From an uncultured Acidobacteriota bacterium (lineage in GTDB: Bacteria > Acidobacteriota > Thermoanaerobaculia > Multivoradales > UBA5704): 64,000 nucleotides of DNA. The translations under genes were made by a program, and so were the position numbers. The DNA is taken from contig OY969474.1 of assembly GCA_963700145.1 (NCBI GenBank), positions 4,832,001 to 4,896,000 on the forward strand, given 5' to 3'. Each line of letters begins with the position of its first letter. Position 1 is the stretch's first letter. Below, piece after piece: positions 5,695 through 51,009 of the stretch. The notes beneath the pieces are model-generated. The model was not told the origin of the DNA, made no database searches, and saw only the letters and a list, made by a program, of their open reading frames with translations.

Positions 5695-6882
5695 TTACAA
5701 CGGCAGCCTGACGCGGAACGTCGACCCCTGCCCGGGCCGGCTCTCGACCTCGACCTGGCCGCCGTGGCTCTGCGCCACGTGCTTGACGATTGCGAGCCCG
5801 AGGCCGGTCCCCCCCTCCTCGCGCGCCCGGCCCTTGTCTACGCGGTAGAAGCGCTCGAAGAGGCGCGGCACGGCCTCGGGCGGGATGCCGATGCCGGTGT
5901 CGCGCACCTCGACGACGGCGCGCTCGCCGTCGCGCGCCAGGGCGAGCGTCACCGTGCCGTCGGGGCGGTTGTACTTGATCGCGTTGTCGAGGAGGTTGCA
6001 GAGGAGGCGCTCGAGGGCGTCGGCGTCGCCCGGCACCGGCGGCAGCGGCGCCGCCTCGAGCGCCAGCCGCACGCCGCGCTCCTCGGCCCGCCGCGCCACC
6101 AGCTCGAGAGCGCCGCGGGCGAGCCCCTCGAGGTCCACCGCCTCCGCCTCGACCGGCGGCCCGATGCTCTCCAGGCGCGACAACGTGAGGAGATCGGCGA
6201 GGAGCGCCTCCAGCCGCCGGCTCTGCTCGAGGATGCGGCCGGTGAAGCGGCGGGCGGTCTCGGGCTCGTCGAGCGCGCCGTCGCGCAGCGTCTCGGCGAA
6301 GCCGCGGATCGCCGAGAGCGGCGTCTTCAGCTCGTGCGAGACGTTGGCGACGAAGTCGCGCCGCGTCTCGGCGAGGCGCGTCGCGTCCGTGGTCTCGCGC
6401 GCCACCAGGACGGCGCCGCCGTCGGCGCCGGCGCCGTCGCGCAGCGGCGCGCCCGCCAGCGCGAAGGTCCGCCGCTCCGGGCCGCGCAGCACGAGCTCGC
6501 CTGCCTGCGGCGCGCCGGTCGCGAGGGTCGCCGCGACCAGCCCCGCCAGCTCGGGCTGCCGCACCAGCTCGAGGAGCGCCCGGCCGGCGACCTCGCCGTG
6601 CACCGCGAAGAGGCGGCGGAAGGCGGCGTTGGCGAGGAGCGCCCGGCCGTCCGCGCCGACGACCAGGACGCCGTCGGCCATCGCGGCGAGGATCGAACCC
6701 AGGAGGTCGCGCTCGGCGCGGGCCGCGGCGGCCTGGCGGTCGCTCTCCTCGGCGAGCCGCCGGGCCTCGGCCGCCAGCGGCGCCAGCCGCCCGGCGAAGC
6801 GGCGCTCGAGCCAGAGCCGCAGCAGGACCGCGGCGGCGGCGAGGGCGGCGAGGACGAGGCCGGCGGCGGCGGCGCGGCTCAC
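5695..6882 (-). CDS. phoR: Sensor histidine kinase PhoR-like (PAS-HisKA-HATPase)
   Basis: RRDFVANVSHELKTPL, NLLDNAIKYN and [27 protein letters not shown] motifs. Confidence 0.88.
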   Translation of the reverse strand: MSRAAAAGLVLAALAAAAVLLRLWLERRFAGRLAPLAAEARRLAEESDRQAAAARAERDLLGSILAAMADGVLVVGADGRALLANAAFRRLFAVHGEVAGRALLELVRQPELAGLVAATLATGAPQAGELVLRGPERRTFALAGAPLRDGAGADGGAVLVARETTDATRLAETRRDFVANVSHELKTPLSAIRGFAETLRDGALDEPETARRFTGRILEQSRRLEALLADLLTLSRLESIGPPVEAEAVDLEGLARGALELVARRAEERGVRLALEAAPLPPVPGDADALERLLCNLLDNAIKYNRPDGTVTLALARDGERAVVEVRDTGIGIPPEAVPRLFERFYRVDKGRAREEGGTGLGLAIVKHVAQSHGGQVEVESRPGQGSTFRVRLPL

Positions 6883-7592
6883 CGGCGCAGCCGGTACCCG
6901 ACCCCGATCACCGTCTCGATCCGCTCGGCCTCGGGGCCGAGCTTGCGCCGCAGGCGCCGGATGTGGGTGTCGACGGTGCGGCTGTCCACGTCCTCGGCGT
7001 AGCCCCAGACGTCGGCGAGGAGCTGGGCGCGGCTCTGCACCCGGCCGCCGCGCTCGAGCAGGAGCTTGAGGAGGCGGAACTCGGTGGCGGTCAGGGGCAC
7101 CTCCTCGCCGCGCACCCAGAGGCGGTGGGCGGCGGCGTCGAGCCGCACGCCGCCGCTCTCGATCGTCTCCTCCGGCGGGCCCTCGGGATGCCGGCGGCGG
7201 AGCACCGCCTTGATCCGCAGCACCACCTCGCGCGGGCTGAAGGGCTTGGTGATGTAGTCGTCGGCCCCGAGCTCGAGGCCGACGATCCGGTCCACCTCTT
7301 CACCCCGGGCGGTGAGCATGACGATGGGCACCCGGGCGGTCGAGCCGTCGCGCTTGAGGGCGCGGGTGATCTCCAGGCCGTCGACGCCGGGGAGCATGAG
7401 GTCGAGGAGGACGAGGTCGGGGGGCTCGCGGCGGATCGCCTCCAGTCCCTGCTCGCCGCGGCGGGCGGTCTCGACCGCGAACCCCTCCTTCTCGAGGTTG
7501 TACTGGAGCACTTCGACGATGTCCGGCTCGTCTTCGATGAGCAGGATGCGGTCGCGGGGCACGCTTGGAGAGCCTACCATCGGGGCGCTCAT
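6879..7592 (-). CDS. phoB: OmpR/PhoB-family response regulator
   Basis: ILLIEDE, LLDLMLPGVDG, GADDYITKPFS and RTVDTHIRRLRRKL motifs. It is the C-terminal part of the 6879..10190 ORF; start reassigned to 7592 (7580 is an alternative). Confidence 0.85.
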   Translation of the reverse strand: MSAPMVGSPSVPRDRILLIEDEPDIVEVLQYNLEKEGFAVETARRGEQGLEAIRREPPDLVLLDLMLPGVDGLEITRALKRDGSTARVPIVMLTARGEEVDRIVGLELGADDYITKPFSPREVVLRIKAVLRRRHPEGPPEETIESGGVRLDAAAHRLWVRGEEVPLTATEFRLLKLLLERGGRVQSRAQLLADVWGYAEDVDSRTVDTHIRRLRRKLGPEAERIETVIGVGYRLRR

Positions 7593-7961
7593 CGAGTTCT
7601 CCACAGGAGCTGCGGAAAAGTCTGTCGAAAAAGGGGTGGAAACGGGCCTGGAACCGGCCTCCCACCGCGGTTTTGACCGCTTTGAACAATCCCTTGTGCA
7701 AATCGCATAAGTGGCTGCCCTGCCGTACTTTGTATCTTTTGCTTCGGAAGCGGCCGGCGCGGCGCCGGGGACGGCCGGGCCAATTTCCGCAATGTCCCCC
7801 GGGGCGTCCCGTCCGCCGGTTCCATAAGTACCTGTACATGAGGAACTTACCGCTGCGCCCGCGGCGCGGCCGCGGCGATCCTGCAACGGCCGTGTGACAC
7901 CTTCGGCCCGCCTCCGGTCCGCCGCCGCGGAGCGCGGGCGGCGCGATAACATCCCCTTTCC

Positions 7962-41868: not shown

Positions 41869-42119
41869 GCGCAACGTCAGCCCGTCATGAACGCTACGGG
41901 TGGCATCATTGGTTGCCTGAACTGCCTAGTACGCCTGCAGTCGCGGCGCTGGCTGGCGCTTGGGCGGCTGAGCCGGATGACGCAATTGCACCTGATGGGT
42001 CGGCGCCGGATATGCCCGCCCGAGTTCCTCGGAGAGCGGGATTGGCTTCCGGCGGAGGCGCTGCGGGACAGTACGTGGGCCGTGTAGCATTCCAGGGGAG
42101 CGAGGGAGACGCGTTTTTC

Positions 42120-42452
42120 ATGGGCACCGCGAACCCCAGCGAGCGAGAAGAGATCCAGCAGATGATCCGGCGGATCGTCAGTCGGTTTCGTCCCGAGAGA
42201 ATCATCCTCTTCGGGTCGCATGCGCGTGGCGATGCGGGCCCCGACAGCGACGTCGATCTTCTCGTCGTCATGCCAGTGGAAGGATCGAGGCGAGAGAAGG
42301 CGGTGGAGATCGGCGTTGCGCTCCAGGACATCCGGCTCCCGAAGGACATCATCGTCACCACTCCGGAGGCCTTCGAAGCCCGCAGCGAGATCCCCGGCAC
42401 GATCGAGCGGCTGTCAGCGAGGGAGGGAAGAGTTCTGTATGCCCGCGGGTAA
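42120..42452 (+). CDS. Minimal nucleotidyltransferase (MNT antitoxin type)
   Basis: ILFGSHARGDAGPDSDVDLLV motif and C-terminal EGRVLY. Confidence 0.85.
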   Translation: MGTANPSEREEIQQMIRRIVSRFRPERIILFGSHARGDAGPDSDVDLLVVMPVEGSRREKAVEIGVALQDIRLPKDIIVTTPEAFEARSEIPGTIERLSAREGRVLYARG

Positions 42453-42861: not shown

Positions 42862-43113
42862 TCACGCGCGTACTGCCGCACCAGGTTCGGCGAACAGCTC
42901 TCCGAGCCCGCGGAACGGGTACTGGCCACCCTTGAGCAGCCATCGGGTGAAGAAGAGGACCTCGAGGTTCTCCACGGCGCCGGTGTGCGGGTTCCGGCGG
43001 GCCGCGACGTTGTAGGCGAGCTGCTCGGTGTCCTGCTCGGGGTAGGGCGGAACCTTGCTGATGTAGAGGATGTCGCCAGCCTCGTCGTAATCGAAGTTCA
43101 ACGGCGTTTCCAT
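42862..43113 (-). CDS. DUF2283 antitoxin-like protein
   Basis: FDYDEAGDILYI and GAVENLEVL motifs. Confidence 0.75.
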   Translation of the reverse strand: METPLNFDYDEAGDILYISKVPPYPEQDTEQLAYNVAARRNPHTGAVENLEVLFFTRWLLKGGQYPFRGLGELFAEPGAAVRA

Positions 43114-43460
43114 TCGACATCTCCTCTGGGCGGTCGGCGCGCGACGAATGCGGTGACGATCCAATGCCTGAGATTCGGCGGCTCGGCCGAGACGACGGCT
43201 ACGACCACGTTCTTGCCGTCCAGCAGCTCGCCGTACCAGCGGATGAAGAGCCGCGTGCCCGGGTAATCGGTGTCCGTTCGGACTTCATCTGGGTCGGTGA
43301 CTGTCTGCTCGACACGAGTGCGCTGCGCCGGCAGCAGCTCCGGGTGGCGTTCGGCGATATGCCGCGCCCGCTCGTCGGTCCATTCTACTTCCCCATCGAG
43401 GTAGGGGCACGGCAGCCGCACGCCCGGCGAGTCCGCGCCGGGAGCGGGCGATGTCTTCAA
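43098..43460 (-). CDS. Small RelE/BrnT/BECR-fold toxin-like protein
   Basis: TDERARHIAERHPEL, TVTDPDEV and WIVTAF motifs; overlaps the DUF2283 gene. Confidence 0.6.
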   Translation of the reverse strand: MKTSPAPGADSPGVRLPCPYLDGEVEWTDERARHIAERHPELLPAQRTRVEQTVTDPDEVRTDTDYPGTRLFIRWYGELLDGKNVVVAVVSAEPPNLRHWIVTAFVARRPPRGDVEWKRR

Positions 43461-44086
43461 GCGAGCCTCACTTCACTCTCGTCACCGAGGAGCCAAAGCT
43501 TCGGTTGCGCCAGCACTCGGGTCACGAACGTGTTCTCCTGGCTCACGCGTTGGGACAGCTCCTCCGAGGAATAGACCGTCAGGGCGACCTTGCGGCCGAG
43601 CTGCGCGGAAGCCTCTTCTAGGGCGGCGAACAGATCGGCATAGGTGAGACGGTCGCTGATCACCATCAGGTCGATGTCACTCGCGGCGTTGTCCTCGCCC
43701 TTGGCGATCGACCCGTAGATGAAAGCCGCCCGGATGCTCGGCGAGACGGGCGCCAGCGCCGCGCGGAGAACGTCGGCGAGCCCCACGGTCTTGAGCACCA
43801 GGGCTCGCAACTCCTCGAACACCGGCGAGGCGGCGTTAGCCTGGTAGTGCTTCTGCTTGCCGACGCGGGTGACGGTCACCAGGCCCGACGCCTCCAGCCG
43901 GGCGAGCTCTCGTTGCACGGCGCCGGTGCCCGAGCGTGCCAGGGCGATCACCTCGTTGGCGTAAAAGCTCCGCCGGGGATTGCCGAAGAGCACCGCCAGC
44001 ACGCGCTGCTGCACCTTGGCGAACAATGCGTCGGCCAGACCGGGGCTCTCCGGCTTGGGCCGTCGCGAGGCGGGATTCATTCCCAT
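43457..44086 (-). CDS. wHTH + nucleotidyltransferase (MNT-type antitoxin)
   Basis: GAVQRELARLEASGLV helix-turn-helix and FIYGSIAKGEDNAASDIDLMV motifs. Confidence 0.85.
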   Translation of the reverse strand: MGMNPASRRPKPESPGLADALFAKVQQRVLAVLFGNPRRSFYANEVIALARSGTGAVQRELARLEASGLVTVTRVGKQKHYQANAASPVFEELRALVLKTVGLADVLRAALAPVSPSIRAAFIYGSIAKGEDNAASDIDLMVISDRLTYADLFAALEEASAQLGRKVALTVYSSEELSQRVSQENTFVTRVLAQPKLWLLGDESEVRLA

Positions 44087-44206: not shown

Positions 44207-44458
44207 CTAGAAGATATTGTATCAGGGCCAGAGGAAACATCCTCTAGGCCAGAGGAAACAATTTCCGGACCGGAGGAAACATCCTTCGGACCGGAGGAAA
44301 CATCCTTTGGGACAGAGGAAACAATTCCTAGACCGGAGGAAACATCCTCTGAGACAGAGGAAACATTTCCTGAGACAGAGGAAACATCCTCTGGCCTAGA
44401 GGAAACATCCTTTGGTCCGGAGGATGTTTCCTCCGGTCCGGATACAGCATCTCCAGGC
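44207..44458. repeat. 21-bp tandem array of palindromic units (12 units including degenerate ends)
   Basis: Consensus cc(a/g)gaggaaacatcctctgg. Units start at 44228 + 21n, and nine carry gaggaaaca. Confidence 0.92.
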
Positions 44459-44503: not shown

Positions 44504-44776
44504 CTAGTACTCCGTCATCGTGTCGTCGGGGTAGCAGTAGAGCCAGCGCTCTTCGGGCTCGGCGGAGGCGATCACCGGGTGGCCGGAGAGGTGGGCGTGG
44601 CGGGTGGCGTGGCGGTTGGGGGAGGCGTCGCAGCAGAGGGTGGCGGCGCAGGTCTGGCAGGTGCGGAGGTGGACCCAGGGGTCGCCGGTCTTGATGCACT
44701 CCTCGCAGACGCGCCGCCGGGGCCACTTGATCTGCTCGACGCTCGCCAGGTGCTCGCAGACCGCCAGCGGGTCCAT
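44504..44776 (-). CDS. UBP-type zinc finger protein
   Basis: CEHL, CEEC, WVHLRTCQTC, CCDASPNRHATRH and WLYCYPDD motifs. Confidence 0.9.
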   Translation of the reverse strand: MDPLAVCEHLASVEQIKWPRRRVCEECIKTGDPWVHLRTCQTCAATLCCDASPNRHATRHAHLSGHPVIASAEPEERWLYCYPDDTMTEY

Positions 44777-44788
44777 CGCCCCCTCCGT

Positions 44789-45625
44789 TTAGGCCGTGCG
44801 CTCGACCGCGGCGAAGAAGCAATCGCCGAGCCACAGGCGGAGCCAGCTGCGCAGGACGGCGGGGTCGATCGGCTCCGGGACGTCGAGGGCGGCGAGGGCC
44901 TCGCCCAGGGTGCGCCGGCCGTCGAGGGCGGCGAGGAGGGCGTGCTGGTCGGTGAAGAGGGGGTGGAAGCGCACCCGGTAGTCGCGGCGGCTGACGGCGA
45001 GCGGGGTGGCGCGCGGGGCGGGGAGCGCGGGCGCTTCTCCGCGGTGGACGGCGGCGACGTAGTCGTGCACCGGGAAGTCGAAGCGGTAGAGCCGCAGGCA
45101 GGGCGCCGGAACGAAGCGGGCGGCGAGCAGGGCGGCCCGCGGCAGGGCGAGGATCTCCGCCGCGGGCCCCGGCGCCCCCTCCAGGCCGGGGCCGTCGTAG
45201 ACCTCCTGGCATGCCAGCTCGAGGGTGGCGAGCTCGACCAGGAGGTCGGCCCAGGGGGCGCGCTCCGCCGCCGGCCAGTCGGCGTCCGGGCGCGTGGCCG
45301 CGAGGTAGCCGGGGAAGGCGTCGGCCAGGCGCCCCAGGGTGTAGCCCGACGGCGGATGGCGGGCGAGATAGTCGGCGGCGAAGCGGTCGAAGAGCGGCTC
45401 GCCCAGGGCGTGCCGCAGCGCCGGGAAGACGGCGCGCAGGCACTCCAGGAGGCGCGCCTGGTAGGAGCGCTGGTAGATGCCGAGCCGCTCGGCGGCGGTC
45501 TGGGTCGCCGAGGCGGTGAGGACGCCGGCGGTGTCGGGCCCCGGCGGGCCGTCCGGCCGGGTGATCGCCGCCTGCAGCCAGCGCTGCCGCCGCGCCAGCT
45601 CGGGCGCCGGCTCCGGCTCGGTCAC
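44789..45625 (-). CDS. DUF2063 (HvfC/BufC-like) MNIO partner protein
   Basis: [25 protein letters not shown]...YLARHPP and LATLE motifs. The GTG start overlaps the DUF692 stop. Confidence 0.85.
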
Positions 45626-46557
45626 CCGAGCTCCGGCGCGACGAGGTGGGGCGGGTTGGAGAGCGGGAAGCCTGGCGCGCCGGACGCCGCGGCCCCGTCC
45701 ACCGCGCCGTCCCCATCCACCGCCGGCACCGCCGCCCCGCGCGCCCAGTCCCGCGCCTTCAGCACCTCGGCGTGGAGCACCGGGAAGGGCGGGATCCTGG
45801 CGTCCCACTCGAGCAGCGTCGCCACCCCGCGCGTCCTACCGTAGGCCAGCCGGTAGAGCTCCCAGACGCGGTCGACGACCGCGCCGTCGTGGGTGTCCAC
45901 GAGGTGGGTGCCGCAGTGCGTGTGGCCGGCGAGGTGGAACTGCACGATGCGCTCGGCCGGCACCGCCGCGACGTAGACCCGCGGGTCGAAGCCGTGGTTG
46001 ACGCTCGAGACGTAGACGTTGTTGACGTCGAGGAGCAGGCCGCAGCCGGTCTCCTCGCTCATGGCGCGCAGGAACTCCCACTCCGCGAGCGTGTCGGAGG
46101 TGAAGCTGACGTAGGTGCTCGGGTTCTCGAGCACCAGCGGCCGCTCCAGGAAGTCCTGCACCGTGCGGATGCGCCCGACGACGTGGCGCAGGGACTCCTC
46201 GTCGAGCGGCATCGGCAGGAGGTCGTGGGTGGTGCGGCCGAGGACGCCGGTCCAGCAGAGGTGGTCGGAGACCCAGGCCGGCCGCACGGCGGCGGCGAGG
46301 GTCTTGAGCTTGCCGAGGTAGGCGAAGTCGAGCGGGTCGCTGCTGCCGATCGAGAGCGACACGCCGTGCATGACCACCGGGTAGCGCTCGGCGATGCGGT
46401 CGAGCACCCAGCGCGGCCGGCCGGCCGAGTCGATGAAGTTCTCGGAGATGACCTCGAACCAGTCGACCGCCGGCCAGTGCTCGAGGATGTGGTCGAAGTG
46501 GATGTTGCGCAGCCCGACGCCGAAGCCGAGGTCGGGCAGGCCCAGCCGGTGCTCCAC
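45622..46557 (-). CDS. DUF692 multinuclear non-heme iron oxidase (MNIO)
   Basis: [59 protein letters not shown] and LEWD motifs. Confidence 0.95.
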
Positions 46558-46568
46558 GATCGCCGGCC

Positions 46569-48278
46569 CTAGCTCGGCGGCAGGACGAGCCGCAGGTTGG
46601 TCGGGGCGGCGGGCGGCTTCGCGTCGGGGTACGTCACCGCGAAGATCTTCCAGGCCGTGTCCCAGACGTTGTCGCCGGCCTTGAAAGTGATGCTCTCGTA
46701 CGTCCACTGCGTGCTGGGGTCCTTGGAGTTGAAGACCTGCGCCACCGGGATCGGCGCGCCGCAGCCGCCATTGCTTTGAGCGGTATTGACGCTCGGGAAG
46801 CTGCTCGGCGGGCTGGGGTAGCCGCAACCGCCCTGCTGACTGCAACTGTTGGCCCCGCTGCAGGTGTGGATGATCGCGTTGGCGCACGTGTTCTGGCCCG
46901 GAGCGTCGGGAGCGAGGCCCTGGCAGGCGTGGGGCGGGCGCCCGGGGTAGGGGAGGCCGCCCGTGGTGTCGACCCGCTTGAAGGCCGGCACGCCGTGGGC
47001 CGCCCAGACCGCGGCGACGCGGGTGTAGAGCGCCTGCATCGCGGCGTAGGGGAAGAGGTCGTCGGCGTCGATGTCGGTGCCCTGGCGGTTGCGCCACCGC
47101 GGGTCCTTCCAGCTCGCCTCGATCGCCAGCAGCAGGCTGCTGTAGCTCTGGTTGAGCGCGTCGTTGATCTGGCCGGCGGTCGCGGGGTCGTTGAGCGCGG
47201 CGGCGCGCTGCGCGGCGAACTGCTTGGTCGCCGCGTCGACGTGGTCGGGGTCGGTCACCAGGTCCTGCCACGTCCACCCGGCCGCGCCGCGCACCTGCCA
47301 CCACTGCGGCCAGGTCTCGATCTCGGGCAGCCAGAGCACGACCTGCTGGAAGCGCTCGAAGTGGCCGAGCTGGTCCCAGAGGTGGCGGACCGCCGCGTCG
47401 TCGGCATTGTAATCGGCCTTCATGCTCTCCTCGGACGGCACGTACTTGTCGTCCACCGGCAGGGTGCCGACGTCCGCGTCGCGCCCTTCGCCCTGCTCGG
47501 TGATCGCCGCGATCATCGTGTCGGCGATCTTTCGCGCGTCGGCCGCCGGCACCCCCAGCGGGAAGAAGACGTCGAACCCCGGGTACTCCTCGTCGGGGTG
47601 CCACTCGTCGGGGTCGGTGAAGTTGAAGAGGTCGATCTGGATCGACTGCGGGTCGTAGACCTTCTCCCAGAGGGTGACGGCGCCGCCGGCGCCCGGGTAG
47701 GTGAGGTCGAAGTACTCCTGGATGCACTCGTAGAGGTGGCCGATGGTGCCGAAGACCGGCAGCGGGTCGCCCGTCTTCCAGCCGGCGAACGGCACCGCGG
47801 GCCGCTTCGTCGGGCTGTCCCAGTCGGGGTTCTCGATCGCCAGGAAGAGGCGCACCTGGTTACGGTCGACCGGCCCGAGCACGACGCGGACATCCTCGTA
47901 GCCGGGCATGTCCTTGAGGTCGCCGATGCAGGGGACGGTGGTGCCGTCGTAGGTGGGCGCGTTCATCTTCGGCGCCACGCCCATCGCGCTCGCCAGGTTG
48001 CCGGCGAGCTGCAGGTGGAGCATCTCCTGCACGTAGACCGAGAAGATGGTGTTGTAGGCGAGCTGGTTGAAGGTGACGACGGTGGCGAACGGCCGCAGCC
48101 CCGGCCAGAGGTTCGGCCCCGGCGAGGGCGCGGCGTAGGTGCCCTGGAGGGAGTAGAGGGCCGTCATGTAGAGCGGGATCGTGAACAGCTCCACGTCCAC
48201 CGCCGACTGGATCAGCGCGTGGAGGGCGGCGGTGTCGGTCGGCAGGTCTTCGGGACAGCGGGTCGGGGTCGGGCTCAT
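46569..48278 (-). CDS. VioB-type ferritin-like domain protein with a C-terminal Cys-rich MNIO-precursor-like tail
   Basis: [32 protein letters not shown] and HFERF motifs. The tail reads [28 protein letters not shown]. Confidence 0.8.
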
Positions 48279-48362
48279 CGCGGGCGGTCTCCTCTCCTGG
48301 CCTACGCAGTTGGGAAATCAATGGGTCGTGATGTCGCGGGAGTATAGGAGAATCCCGCCGCC

Positions 48363-49100
48363 GTGACCACGCTCTCGGTCAACCTCAACAAGGTCTGCCT
48401 GGTGCGCAACTCGCGCGGCGGGACGGTGCCGGACCTGGTCGAGGCGGCGCGGCTGGCGATCGCCGCCGGCTGCCGGGGGCTGACGCTGCACCCGCGCGCC
48501 GACGCCCGCCACGCGACGCTCGACGACGTCCGCCGGCTGGCCGCGATGCCGGAGGTGGCGGACGGGCGGATCGAGCTCAACGTCGAGGGGGACCTGCGGC
48601 CGGAGGTGATGGAGGTGGTGCGCGAGACGCGGGCGACGCAGTACACGGTCGTGCCGGTCACCCCCGGCGAGGTCACCAGCACCCGCGGCTGGCGGGCCAC
48701 CGACGACGGCGACGCCCTCCGCCGCGCGATCGACTCCTTCGCCGGCGCTACCCGCGTCAGCCTCTTCGTGGACGCCGAAGGGGAGGGGATCGACCTCGCC
48801 GCCGCCGCCGGGGCGGGCTGCGTCGAGCTCCACACCTTCGACTACGCGGCGGCCTACCCGACGCCGCGGCGCGACGAGGTGCTCGCCCGCTTCGTGCGCG
48901 CCGCCGAGCGGGCGCGGGGGCTCGGCCTGCGCGTCCACGCCGGCCACGACCTCGACCTCGAGAACCTCGGCCTCCTCGTCGAGCGCCTGCGTCCCGACGA
49001 GGTGTCGATCGGCCACGCGATCGTCTCCCAGGCGATCCTCACCGGCCTGCCGCTGGTCGTCGCGCGCTACGCCGCGATTACGGGCGCGAACGCGCCGTAG
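48363..49100 (+). CDS. pdxJ: Pyridoxine 5'-phosphate synthase
   Basis: LSVNLNKV..RNSRGG, LHPRADARH, NVEG, ELHT, AGHDL and SIGHA motifs. Confidence 0.82.
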   Translation: MTTLSVNLNKVCLVRNSRGGTVPDLVEAARLAIAAGCRGLTLHPRADARHATLDDVRRLAAMPEVADGRIELNVEGDLRPEVMEVVRETRATQYTVVPVTPGEVTSTRGWRATDDGDALRRAIDSFAGATRVSLFVDAEGEGIDLAAAAGAGCVELHTFDYAAAYPTPRRDEVLARFVRAAERARGLGLRVHAGHDLDLENLGLLVERLRPDEVSIGHAIVSQAILTGLPLVVARYAAITGANAP

Positions 49101-49207
49101 GTATTCCGCGCCGCGCCGTTCTTTCGCTGGTACGGGCGTTGCACCCTTACGCCTCTTGGCCCGGGCGGCCGGACGTTCGTGCCCGCCCGCATCAAGGAGG
49201 AACCATC

Positions 49208-49844
49208 ATGCGTAAGGCCTTGACCACACTCACTCTCGCCCTCAGCCTGCCCCTCGTCCTCGCCGCGACCGCCGACGCGAGCCCCGGCAAGGGGAAGGGC
49301 AAGGACAAGGACAAGGGCAAGCAGCAGAAGCAGGTCCTGAAGCACGACAAGCACGACGACGACCACGGCAAGCACGACGGCAACATGCGCTTCCACGGCA
49401 TCGACAAGAACAACGACGGCCGCATCACCCGCGCCGAGTGGCCGGGCAACGACGTCTCGTTCGACAACCACGACTGGAACGACGACGGCGTCCTCTCCGG
49501 TGACGAGGTGCGTCCGGGCGCCCGCCGCGACGATGACGACGACGAGGTGCCGTTCGATCGCTTCGAGGCCCTCGACCTCGACAACAACGGCGTCCTGACG
49601 CGCTCCGAGTGGCGGGGGAGCGCGGCGCTCTTCGACCGCCTCGACCGCAACGACGACGGCGCCATCAGCCGGCGCGAGTTCCTCGACCGCATCCTGACGG
49701 GCGACGACCGCTTCGGCCTGATGGACGTCAACGACGACGGGCGCATCTCCCGCGGCCGAGTGGCGCGGCACGGCGGCGGCCTTCGACAGCCTCGACCGCA
49801 ACGACGACGGCTTCCTGTCGCTCGCCGAGTTCCTCCGCCGCTAA
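49208..49844 (+). CDS. Secreted EF-hand repeat protein, frameshift at about 49754
   Basis: Signal peptide and repeated DxNxDGxIxRxEW loops. The last repeat continues in the shifted frame to TAA at 49844. Confidence 0.78.
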
Positions 49845-49925: not shown

Positions 49926-51009
49926 ATGGCCAGGCCAACGAAGCTCCTCCTTCCCCTGACCTTCACGATCCTTCTCGCCGCCGCCTTCGCCCCGCCCGCC
50001 GGGGCCGAGGTGACCGTCAGCTTCGGCGTCTTCTTCGACGGGCTCGCGCCCTACGGCGCCTGGACCAACCACCCGCGCCTCGGGATGGTGTGGTCGCCGG
50101 ACGTCGCGCCGGGGTGGCGGCCGTACAGCGACGGGCGCTGGGCGTTCGCGGCCGACGAGGGCTGGACCTGGCTCGGCGACGAGCCCTGGGCCTGGGCGCC
50201 CTACCACTACGGCAACTGGATGTTCGACCCGGTCGCCGGCTGGCTCTGGGTGCCGGGGTACGACGAGTGGGCGCCGGCGGTGGTGGACTGGCGGGTGACG
50301 GACGACTGGATCGGGTGGGCGCCGCGCCCGCTCAGCGCCAGCTGGATCGTCGGCCCGCGCCTGCTGCCGGTCCACTACACCTTCGTCGAGCGGCGCTTCT
50401 TCGCCGAGCCGATCCTGACGCGCTACATCGTGCCGGTCGGCCGCAACGTCGAGCTCTTCGCGTCGCGCGGCCGGTCCGCGTCGTCGACGTCGATTGGATC
50501 GAGCGCGCGGCCCGCGCCGGATCGAGCGCGTGCGGCTGCGGGACCTCAAGGCGCCGCGGGCGCTCCGGGGCGAGCTGCGCGCCGCGTCGCGGGGGCGCGA
50601 CCGCGTCGTCGTCGAGCCGCGGGAGCACGGCCGCCCGCGGGTGAAGGCCGCCAAAGCCGGCCGCCGGGTCGATCGCGGCCCGAAGATCGAACGGTCGGCC
50701 CCGCGCCGGGTCCGCGAGCTGCGGGCCGAGCGGCCGGGGCGGAGCCGCGACGTCCTTGAGCGGCGGAGCCGCGGTAAGGCGGAGAGCCGGGTCGGCGCGC
50801 GGCACGTCGAGCGGCGCCCCGCCGTCAAACAGTCGCCGCCGCGCAACGCCCGTGAGCAGCGGGCGACCGGGCGGACGCGCGGCGGGGGCCGCAGTGATGG
50901 CGGCCATCAGTTCGACCACGGGCCGCAGCGCCAGCACCAGCACGGCGCGCAGCGCGGCGGCGGCGGGAAGGGCGGCGGGAAGAAGGGCGGCGGCAAGCCC
51001 CCCCAATAG
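49926..51009 (+). CDS. DUF6600-like secreted protein with a basic low-complexity tail; two apparent frameshifts at about 50470 and 50515
   Basis: LAPYGAW, WRPYSDGRW, PWAWAPYHYGNW, WAPAVVDW and IGWAP motifs. Confidence 0.7.

Follow-up and report, generated by a model that had tools for sequence, protein, structure and literature searches.

A Cys-rich tail of a ferritin-like protein as the putative substrate of a bufferin-type MNIO

What does an MNIO (DUF692) enzyme with its DUF2063 partner act upon when the gene ahead of it encodes not a small precursor peptide but a large ferritin-like protein? This question is raised by an operon on contig OY969474.1 of an uncultured Acidobacteriota bacterium, whose genome is one 5.46-Mb contig. 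The stretch analyzed here (64,000 nt, the window) carries four tightly spaced genes on the minus strand. The first encodes a ferritin-like protein (PF12902), and 11 bp later follows the gene of a BufB-type MNIO; the next, for a DUF2063 partner, overlaps it by 4 bp, and after another 12 bp comes that of a zf-UBP zinc-finger protein. While MNIO/DUF2063 pairs are known for small, mostly exported peptides that become copper-binding metallophores, here the pair appears to be dedicated to a domain of an intracellular protein of ~60 kDa. We consider it probable that the Cys-rich tail of this signal-less protein is the MNIO substrate, so that bufferin/captophorin-type maturation would take place on a protein domain rather than on a small exported peptide. 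The same idea was at the core of an initial annotation made from the DNA letters, and it is now supported by conserved synteny, by homology of the tail to solo proteins that stand where a precursor would, by a single MNIO clade for the fused and the solo forms, and by the lack of any other precursor in the genome. The parts of the operon that carry the argument are as follows.

46569..48278, minus strand: gene of the ferritin-like protein, 569 aa (PF12902 at 1.2e-28 over residues 23-313)
46959..48278, minus strand: ferritin-like body of the CC_0557/3hl1 type, residues 1-440 (PF12902; sequence and fold match to 3hl1)
46749..46958, minus strand: Cys-rich bufferin-type stretch, putative MNIO substrate, residues 441-510 (invariant columns, BLASTP, hhalign, AlphaFold2)
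46569..46748, minus strand: hairpin-helix module and invariant C-terminus ..LRLvLPPS, residues 511-569 plus stop codon (AlphaFold2, conservation)
45622..46557, minus strand: MNIO (DUF692) of BufB type, 311 aa, GTG start 11 bp past the upstream stop (PF05114 at 3e-106; NF050167)
44789..45625, minus strand: DUF2063 partner (PME type 1/BufC-like), 278 aa (PF09836 at 2.1e-19)

The GC content at the locus is 0.69-0.78, and long spurious frames overlap the true genes; the four genes were picked out by family match. Their open reading frames (ORFs) and spacing agree exactly with the layout first described, and the hidden Markov model check proposed at that time returned PF12902, PF05114 and PF09836, each with its expected protein, along with PF02148 for the zf-UBP protein.

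The Cys-rich tail and the gene trio

The tail of the window protein possesses six Cys, at positions 452, 465, 473, 479, 485, and 506, and the place where the initial annotation had begun it, 46931, is the start of the H450 codon. A word-indexed search returned 554 relatives; the 120 listed were almost all 550-690 aa long, with PF12902, and 119 sequences were aligned. Five of the six tail Cys are invariant in these 119 relatives, and the key residues of the stretch can be given as H450, C452, C465, H471, C473, N477, C479, GGC485G, and GGC506G. The invariant columns comprise H450, C452, Q453, H471, C473, N477, C479, G484, C485, and G486, and also G504, G505, C506, P509, Q514, A542, R563, and P568, with P567 and S569 at the very C-terminus at least 90% conserved; the invariant columns of the tail are likewise present in an alignment of 57 sequences. 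A profile of the tail only matched just 198 representatives among 1.84 billion proteins, mostly of 500-800 aa and with the match at the C-terminus. Judged by these alignments, the tail is a conserved domain.

In the AlphaFold2 model of the full protein, built from the 119 sequences (mean predicted local distance difference test score, pLDDT, 90; predicted template modeling score, pTM, 0.92), residues 1-440 score above 90, residues 441-510, with all six Cys, score 59-72 and have no secondary structure, and residues 511-569 score 84-91, forming a hairpin (524-533) and two helices (538-549 and 561-565). When the tail was folded alone, the mean pLDDT was 61 (44-53 in the Cys part) and the pTM 0.41, and a look-up of the tail in the ESM Atlas gave no usable match. 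The Cys stretch would be, at the low confidence of the model in this region, flexible and devoid of structure.

The gene order around the tail-bearing gene was followed in one genome per species: a relative is encoded in 322 of these, and the 80 loci that ranked best were taken, representing Pseudomonadota (64), Bacteroidota (7), Acidobacteriota, Actinomycetota, and Myxococcota (3 each), with the nearest relatives found in metagenome-assembled genomes (MAGs) of Thermoanaerobaculia, at 89% and 68% identity. The ferritin-like gene is directly followed by the MNIO and then by the DUF2063 gene in 78 of the 80 loci (tblastn), and the two loci without the trio (L057, L065) run into a contig edge inside or just past the ferritin-like gene. 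The trio is thus intact in 78/78 informative loci, which is how the neighborhood survey suggested by the initial annotation turned out for the tail-bearing gene and its two partners. A second fused subfamily (L117), of 529 aa and with the motif HACQGLNAC, has downstream genes alike. All-against-all clustering of every ORF detected no further conserved neighbor in more than 13 of the 80 loci, and the zf-UBP gene was found in a single locus, that of the nearest relative (L001; tblastn), so that the conserved unit, as read from gene order, is of three genes. Given that 119 sequences agree without exception in the tail motifs and that 78 of the 80 loci keep the three-gene order, the pattern of operon plus tail is, by sequence comparison, far beyond chance.

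The genome was also searched for another substrate. It encodes exactly one MNIO. The absence of a small signal-peptide precursor, remarked upon in the initial annotation, holds: neither the operon nor its immediate surroundings contain a small Cys-rich ORF that has a signal peptide, and no small conserved ORF besides the trio genes occurs in the 80 loci. Genome-wide, nothing scored over the cut-off for DUF2282 (best 12.9 bits) or for BufA2 (cut-off 60 bits; best 12.8 bits, for a frame with a stop inside and located elsewhere than the tail), and of the four open frames of at least 30 aa that carry the motif C.G.N.C, only the tail is bufferin-like. Five other trio-bearing genomes carry two to three MNIOs each; two of the extra MNIOs adjoin DUF2282 precursors (L089, L090) and one adjoins a short Cys-Gly-rich ORF (L088). 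Because these extra enzymes sit by their own precursors, the ferritin-linked MNIO is, on genomic context, a separate system and not a stray copy.

Solo forms of the tail domain and the descent of the enzyme

Where does such a domain come from? One line of evidence leads to the bufferins. When 57 tails were scanned singly, the matches were sub-threshold only, BufA2 being the most frequent NCBIfam family (6/57, best E 0.14). A comparison of the tail with BufA2 by hhalign (14 BufA2 sequences from Burkholderiales genomes, one genome marked as unpublished being excluded) gave a score of 27.4 and an E value of 2.7e-4, with HTCxGxNxCxxQGGCG of the tail aligned on the second CKGQNxCKGxG of BufA2, and none of 100 column shuffles of the BufA2 alignment reached this score (maximum 20.5, mean 11.2, standard deviation 2.5).

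Another line of evidence is presented by proteins that consist of little more than the Cys domain. A word-based search for shorter stand-alone relatives recovered only two proteins, of 279 and 294 aa. The small solo proteins surfaced through the tail profile search, as the cluster P0264, with 13 members, all of 138 aa, on contigs of up to 34 kb. In BLASTP, the tail aligns with P0264 at E 7e-17 (39% over 109 aa) and with the solo protein of L119, which has a twin-arginine (Tat) signal, at E 7e-12. In species genomes, 87 relatives of P0264 were found, of which 80 were taken (L118-L197), and an MNIO is within the locus in 70 of these 80. In the closest of the solo-form loci (L118-L123, L126) the small gene is immediately upstream of the MNIO and DUF2063 genes, that is, in the precursor slot. 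One of these, in a Pyrinomonadaceae MAG (L118, 7001-7414), encodes a signal-less solo form of 138 aa; in four others, from Binatia and Verrucomicrobiia (L119-L122, ~6850-7300 per locus), a twin-arginine-like signal, SRRDF, and not a Sec signal, precedes the Cys domain, which retains the C-terminal helix W..ARK.FEA.M. CKGQNSCKGQGGC repeats mark the remoter relatives of P0264, which are precursors of the Sec or lipoprotein kind. By these similarities, the tail and the solo proteins of the precursor slot are homologous. The ferritin-like N-domain is found in none of the 80 solo loci, and PF12902 in one of five solo-form genomes, the other four being without a match, but these are MAGs and so possibly incomplete. 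These solo operons and genomes speak against the further suggestion of the initial annotation, namely a role of the ferritin-like part in maturing the tail that it carries.

The MNIO phylogeny points in the same direction. The MNIOs of L118-L122 share 66-72% identity with that of the window, more than most ferritin-linked MNIOs do. In a FastTree analysis of 144 rows, a clade of 63 rows with a local support of 92 consists of every fused form (57 + 1) and each of the five solo full-domain forms, to the exclusion of any other row; within it the lineage of the window groups weakly with the solo forms. A quick IQ-TREE search with 77 rows places 57/57 ferritin-linked MNIOs on one side of a branch with a support of 99 in the Shimodaira-Hasegawa-like approximate likelihood ratio test (SH-aLRT), nested among bufferin-type enzymes, and a quick IQ-TREE search with 68 rows recovers the 31 tail-type rows as one clade, SH-aLRT 97. 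For the 68-row tree, 25 of the 57 fused rows were hand-picked, 21 signal-peptide repeat-type rows were kept (18 random, plus L150, L176, L123, and L124), and the long-branch rows L091, L093, L113, and L114 were left out. As the clade joins fused and solo forms, the enzyme, according to these trees, tracks the Cys domain irrespective of fusion.

The ferritin-like body, the proposed maturation and its alternatives

If the tail is the substrate, what is the body to which it is attached? The ferritin-like family named in the initial annotation is indeed PF12902 (100.9 bits, against a gathering score of 22.3), and the motifs listed there, including EQGEG, are found in the 569-aa protein. PDB entry 3hl1, the uncharacterized ferritin-like protein CC_0557, is matched by sequence (E 6e-19) and is the only match of the model in Foldseek (E 2.5e-10); VIA-align places residues 4-434 of the model on 3hl1_B with Z 29.2 and a root-mean-square deviation of 2.7 over 275 aligned residues, followed by generic ferritin and Dps bundles at Z of 9.5 or less. 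Candidate di-metal ligands of the body are E30, E85, H88, E149, E264, and H306, of which E30 is at least 90% conserved and the other five are invariant in the 119-sequence alignment; the pattern (E30 / E85-x-x-H88 / E149 / E264 / H306), whose fourth motif is not ExxH, was judged by sequence alone. The N-terminus of the 569-aa protein leads directly into the first ferritin helix, and a crude hydropathy check detected no twin-arginine (RR) motif or separate hydrophobic segment in any of the 119 fused proteins (0/119), because of which these are read, by this crude test, as cytoplasmic.

Such a body invites the opposite assignment, in which the ferritin-like protein would serve the MNIO pathway as an accessory or tailoring enzyme, or by donating metal; its Cys and His residues would make up an ordinary structural site for Zn or Fe-S, and the real substrate would have to be sought in an unrecognized small peptide or elsewhere. 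The di-metal-like ligand set and the confident enzyme-like fold of the N-domain speak for this, as does the lack of a match of the tail to any curated precursor family, and a caution voiced by Antoine et al. that large ORFs ahead of MNIO genes may be enzymes (PMC12452194). We nevertheless judge it unlikely: the tail is homologous to proteins that hold the precursor slot in loci without the N-domain, the MNIO clade follows the tail domain and not the ferritin-like domain, and neither another candidate precursor in the genome nor a small conserved ORF in the loci is at hand.

Another possibility is that the fusion is itself a true precursor, with the ferritin-like part of ~440 aa as a giant leader or scaffold; once modified, the tail would be cut away from it and leave, by release or export, to serve as a peptide metallophore. 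The existence of solo forms of the Cys domain, some with Tat signals, means that the domain can function detached, and the Cys stretch is flexible in the model, both of which would suit such a scheme. However, the 80 loci share no conserved protease or transporter gene, residues 511-569, which follow the Cys stretch, are modeled with confidence as part of a well-defined whole (pLDDT 84-91, whole-protein pTM 0.92), the extreme C-terminus is invariant, and the N-domain is strongly conserved in its own right. This scheme we regard as very improbable.

The preferred reading, of the tail as a substrate that stays on its protein, can be extended to a mechanism through the two partner proteins. The MNIO scores 352.4 bits against NF050167 (MNIO_BufB), over the curated cut-off of 310, and its profile matches 3bww (2e-63), TglH, and MbnB. 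The invariant positions of the profile are H64, H99, E144, D177, N180, H208, D221, H223, and E250, and these presumably correspond to the iron ligands of MbnB. The DUF2063 protein scores 70 bits against PF09836 (cut-off 27.2) and has a weak match to HvfC (8.9e-11); a profile sequence search detected no solved structure for it. In the proposed sequence of events, the flexible Cys stretch would be recruited and docked by the DUF2063 partner, and some of its Cys would become 5-thiooxazoles through the action of the multi-iron MNIO with O2, in the way known for BufB/BufC and BufA1. Foremost among the candidates are the Cys of the invariant GGC485G and GGC506G, because these resemble the Gly-flanked Cys of EGKCG repeats, and perhaps also C473/C479 of CxGxNxC. 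The product would be a built-in soft-metal site, probably for Cu(I), on an intracellular protein whose four-helix N-terminal body keeps a ligand set like that of di-metal carboxylate proteins, and the holo-protein may buffer or process cytoplasmic metal. That N-terminal fusions can be tolerated by such enzymes follows from two published experiments: BufB1/BufC1 modify a SUMO-BufA1 that lacks the signal peptide (PMC11626156), and an MBP-FonA fusion co-expressed with FonBC binds up to four Cu (PMC13097082). The chemistry (thiooxazole) and the metal are less certain than the assignment of the substrate.

The chemistry is, accordingly, where a different view may be taken, namely that the MNIO carries out some other reaction on the tail, such as oxazolone-thioamide formation, cross-linking, or carbon excision, and so makes a redox cofactor and not a copper ligand. 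Published abstracts describe varied reactions across the MNIO subfamilies, the fused and solo MNIOs form a clade of their own, and the GGCG flanks in the tail differ from the Cys-Lys and Lys-Cys motifs discussed in PMC13097082. Against these stand the score of the MNIO, which is over the BufB equivalog cut-off, its nested position among bufferin-type MNIOs, and the statement in PMC13097082 that all characterized MNIO-PME1 clusters install 5-thiooxazoles, with products that generally bind Cu. A departure of this kind seems to us very improbable.

A number of observations weigh against the tail being the substrate and have to be set beside those in its favor. Pfam and NCBIfam return no family for the window's tail even at E of 10 or less, and the hhalign probability of its relation to BufA2 is only 41.5%. 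The six Cys and two His could equally make a plain Zn or Fe-S site. DUF2063-type partners are reported to go with Sec-signal precursors (PMC12452194), a rule that the fused system breaks. The ratios of non-synonymous to synonymous substitutions, calculated against the two nearest relatives (L001, L002), are moderately below 1, at 0.39-0.49 for the Cys stretch, and those for the last 59 codons are noisy (0.61 and 1.5). Finally, the synteny rests on the best 80 of the 322 matching genomes.

A bolder extension of the preferred reading may be entertained, as a doubtful yet not idle possibility. The heterocycles made by the MNIO would in this case be a protein-derived cofactor rather than a sponge for metal, in which thiooxazole or related ligands hold copper or another metal by the di-metal centre, making a new cytoplasmic heterometallic oxidase or redox enzyme with an active site built by the machinery for peptides that are made on the ribosome and modified after translation (RiPP machinery), and the solo and Tat forms would represent the free-standing ancestor of the cofactor module.

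The surroundings of the trio provide two further features.

44504..44776, minus strand: stand-alone zf-UBP zinc-finger protein, 90 aa (PF02148 at 3.6e-11)
48341..48369, minus strand: sigma-70-like promoter match 5' of the ferritin-like gene (9/12 consensus positions; consensus match only)

The zf-UBP protein (PF02148, 43.6 bits, against a gathering score of 22.7) had been counted in a four-gene operon by the initial annotation; its gene is co-oriented and 12 bp downstream, as described, but does not belong to the conserved unit, and as a component of the system it was rejected, being a lineage-specific neighbor. Free C-terminal tails are what the UBP fingers of eukaryotes bind; it is pure speculation that the zf-UBP protein might be tied to the invariant free C-terminus LRLvLPPS of the ferritin-like protein. 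In the gap downstream of the zf-UBP gene, a tandem repeat of 21 bp in 9.5 copies (a period of 63 bp is also readable) occupies 44225-44424 of the window, where the GC content goes down to 0.59 and three units were marked, on the minus strand, as hairpins of a terminator-like type, each with a T-rich tail. Farther along, two nucleotidyltransferase genes (NTP_transf_2/Polbeta; 41913-42452 and 43457-44086) flank small ORFs without an assignment at 42862-43460, which together may be toxin-antitoxin-like modules. On the other side, the ferritin-like gene, with a ribosome-binding-site-like GGAGAGGAG ahead of its ATG, is separated from the divergent pdxJ by a gap of 84 bp that holds the promoter-like match. 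Beyond pdxJ lie genes for a signal-peptide EF-hand protein (EF-hand_5/6/7; 49139-49800) and a DUF6600 protein (49926-50759); the former is a neighbor only, and fusions of EF-hand_5 to EGKCG bufferin domains are known (PMC12452194). Elsewhere among the 80 trio loci, the recurring neighbors ABC-F, LysR, and glutaminyl cyclase look like lineage synteny, probably also in the case of the glutaminyl cyclase (PF05096) found near the trio in 10 of the 80 (L009, L040, L048, L058, and other Oxalobacteraceae). An ORF of ~450 aa with no Pfam match lies directly upstream of the ferritin-like gene in eight loci of the Methylobacter/Undibacterium subgroup (L003-L009, ~6540-7930), and is absent from the window.

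Significance and comparison with known systems

Overall, the trio is conserved in hundreds of species genomes of at least five phyla, and, if the proposed substrate assignment is true, thiooxazole chemistry moves from peptide natural products into the post-translational modification of proteins, DUF2063-type partners are no longer tied, as has been reported, to substrates with a Sec signal, and a first functional handle is gained on the PF12902/CC_0557 ferritin-like family. Fused forms, cytoplasmic solo forms, and solo forms exported by Tat make up a natural series in which to compare what the ferritin-like body adds, and the signal-less solo form of 138 aa could serve as a minimal substrate.

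As to precedents, a full-text search found no published description of an MNIO with a PF12902 ferritin-like fusion, although supplements of MNIO papers may list it, in agreement with the initial annotation, which knew of no characterized example. Antoine et al. (2025) gathered the ORFs preceding MNIO genes with no size limit (PMC12452194), and the word “ferritin” is absent from the main text of that paper, while its supplementary tables may list such neighbors. Literature searches found no function for 3hl1 or PF12902.

The closest known systems can be compared with the one in the window in terms of the body, of the fusion, and of the bufferin-type partners. For the body, the comparison is with CC_0557 of Caulobacter vibrioides (PDB 3hl1; PF12902), which shares its fold with the N-terminal 434 residues of the window protein, along with the motifs ELWTIPYY, QEMLH, and DQGEG. 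However, 3hl1 is a structural-genomics entry of 317 aa without a Cys-rich tail, whereas the window protein is of 569 aa and has one.

For the fusion, the text of PMC12452194 describes bufferin domains joined to other domains, as in Buf1|Cytochrom_C|FGE-sulfatase, MerC|Buf1, MerC|Buf2, and Buf_EGKCG|EF-hand_5. As in the window, a bufferin-type domain is there carried by a larger functional protein, which is taken to mean that MNIOs are able to modify proteins. In these fusions, which are exported or anchored in the membrane, the bufferin domain lies outside the cytoplasm, while that of the window is intracellular.

Bufferin 1 (BufA1/DUF2282-BufB1-BufC1-BufD1, of C. vibrioides) is the system in which, as reported in PMC11626156, an MNIO and a DUF2063 partner convert Cys to 5-thiooxazoles, on a precursor that folds as a small protein and whose signal peptide is dispensable for modification. 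The mass of BufA1 is lowered by 10 Da there, which corresponds to two thiooxazoles and one disulfide. A separate Buf1 operon is often co-resident in trio-bearing genomes. In contrast to Bufferin 1, the window protein has no DUF2282 match and is cytoplasmic and not periplasmic, and the MNIOs linked to Buf1 are only 40-44% identical to that of the window.

Bufferin 2, or the “Cys-Lys” captophorin (BufA2-BufB2-BufC2; Buf_6/12Cys; NF050166, NF050167), likewise combines a BufB-type MNIO with a DUF2063 partner. The order of genes, substrate, MNIO, partner, is the same as at the window locus, the pattern CxGxNxC-x5-C is common to BufA2 and the window tail, and the BufA2-linked MNIOs are 49-59% identical to the MNIO of the window. 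The substrate of Bufferin 2 is, however, a Sec-exported peptide of 85-120 aa, whereas that proposed here is the C-terminal domain of a signal-less protein of 569 aa. The window tail is under the BufA2 cut-off and has GGCG in place of the CKG motifs, a hairpin-helix module and an LPPS end are extra to Bufferin 2, and the MNIO clade is separate. Unlike in Bufferin 2, no DoxX or sigma/anti-sigma genes are conserved in the 80 trio loci.

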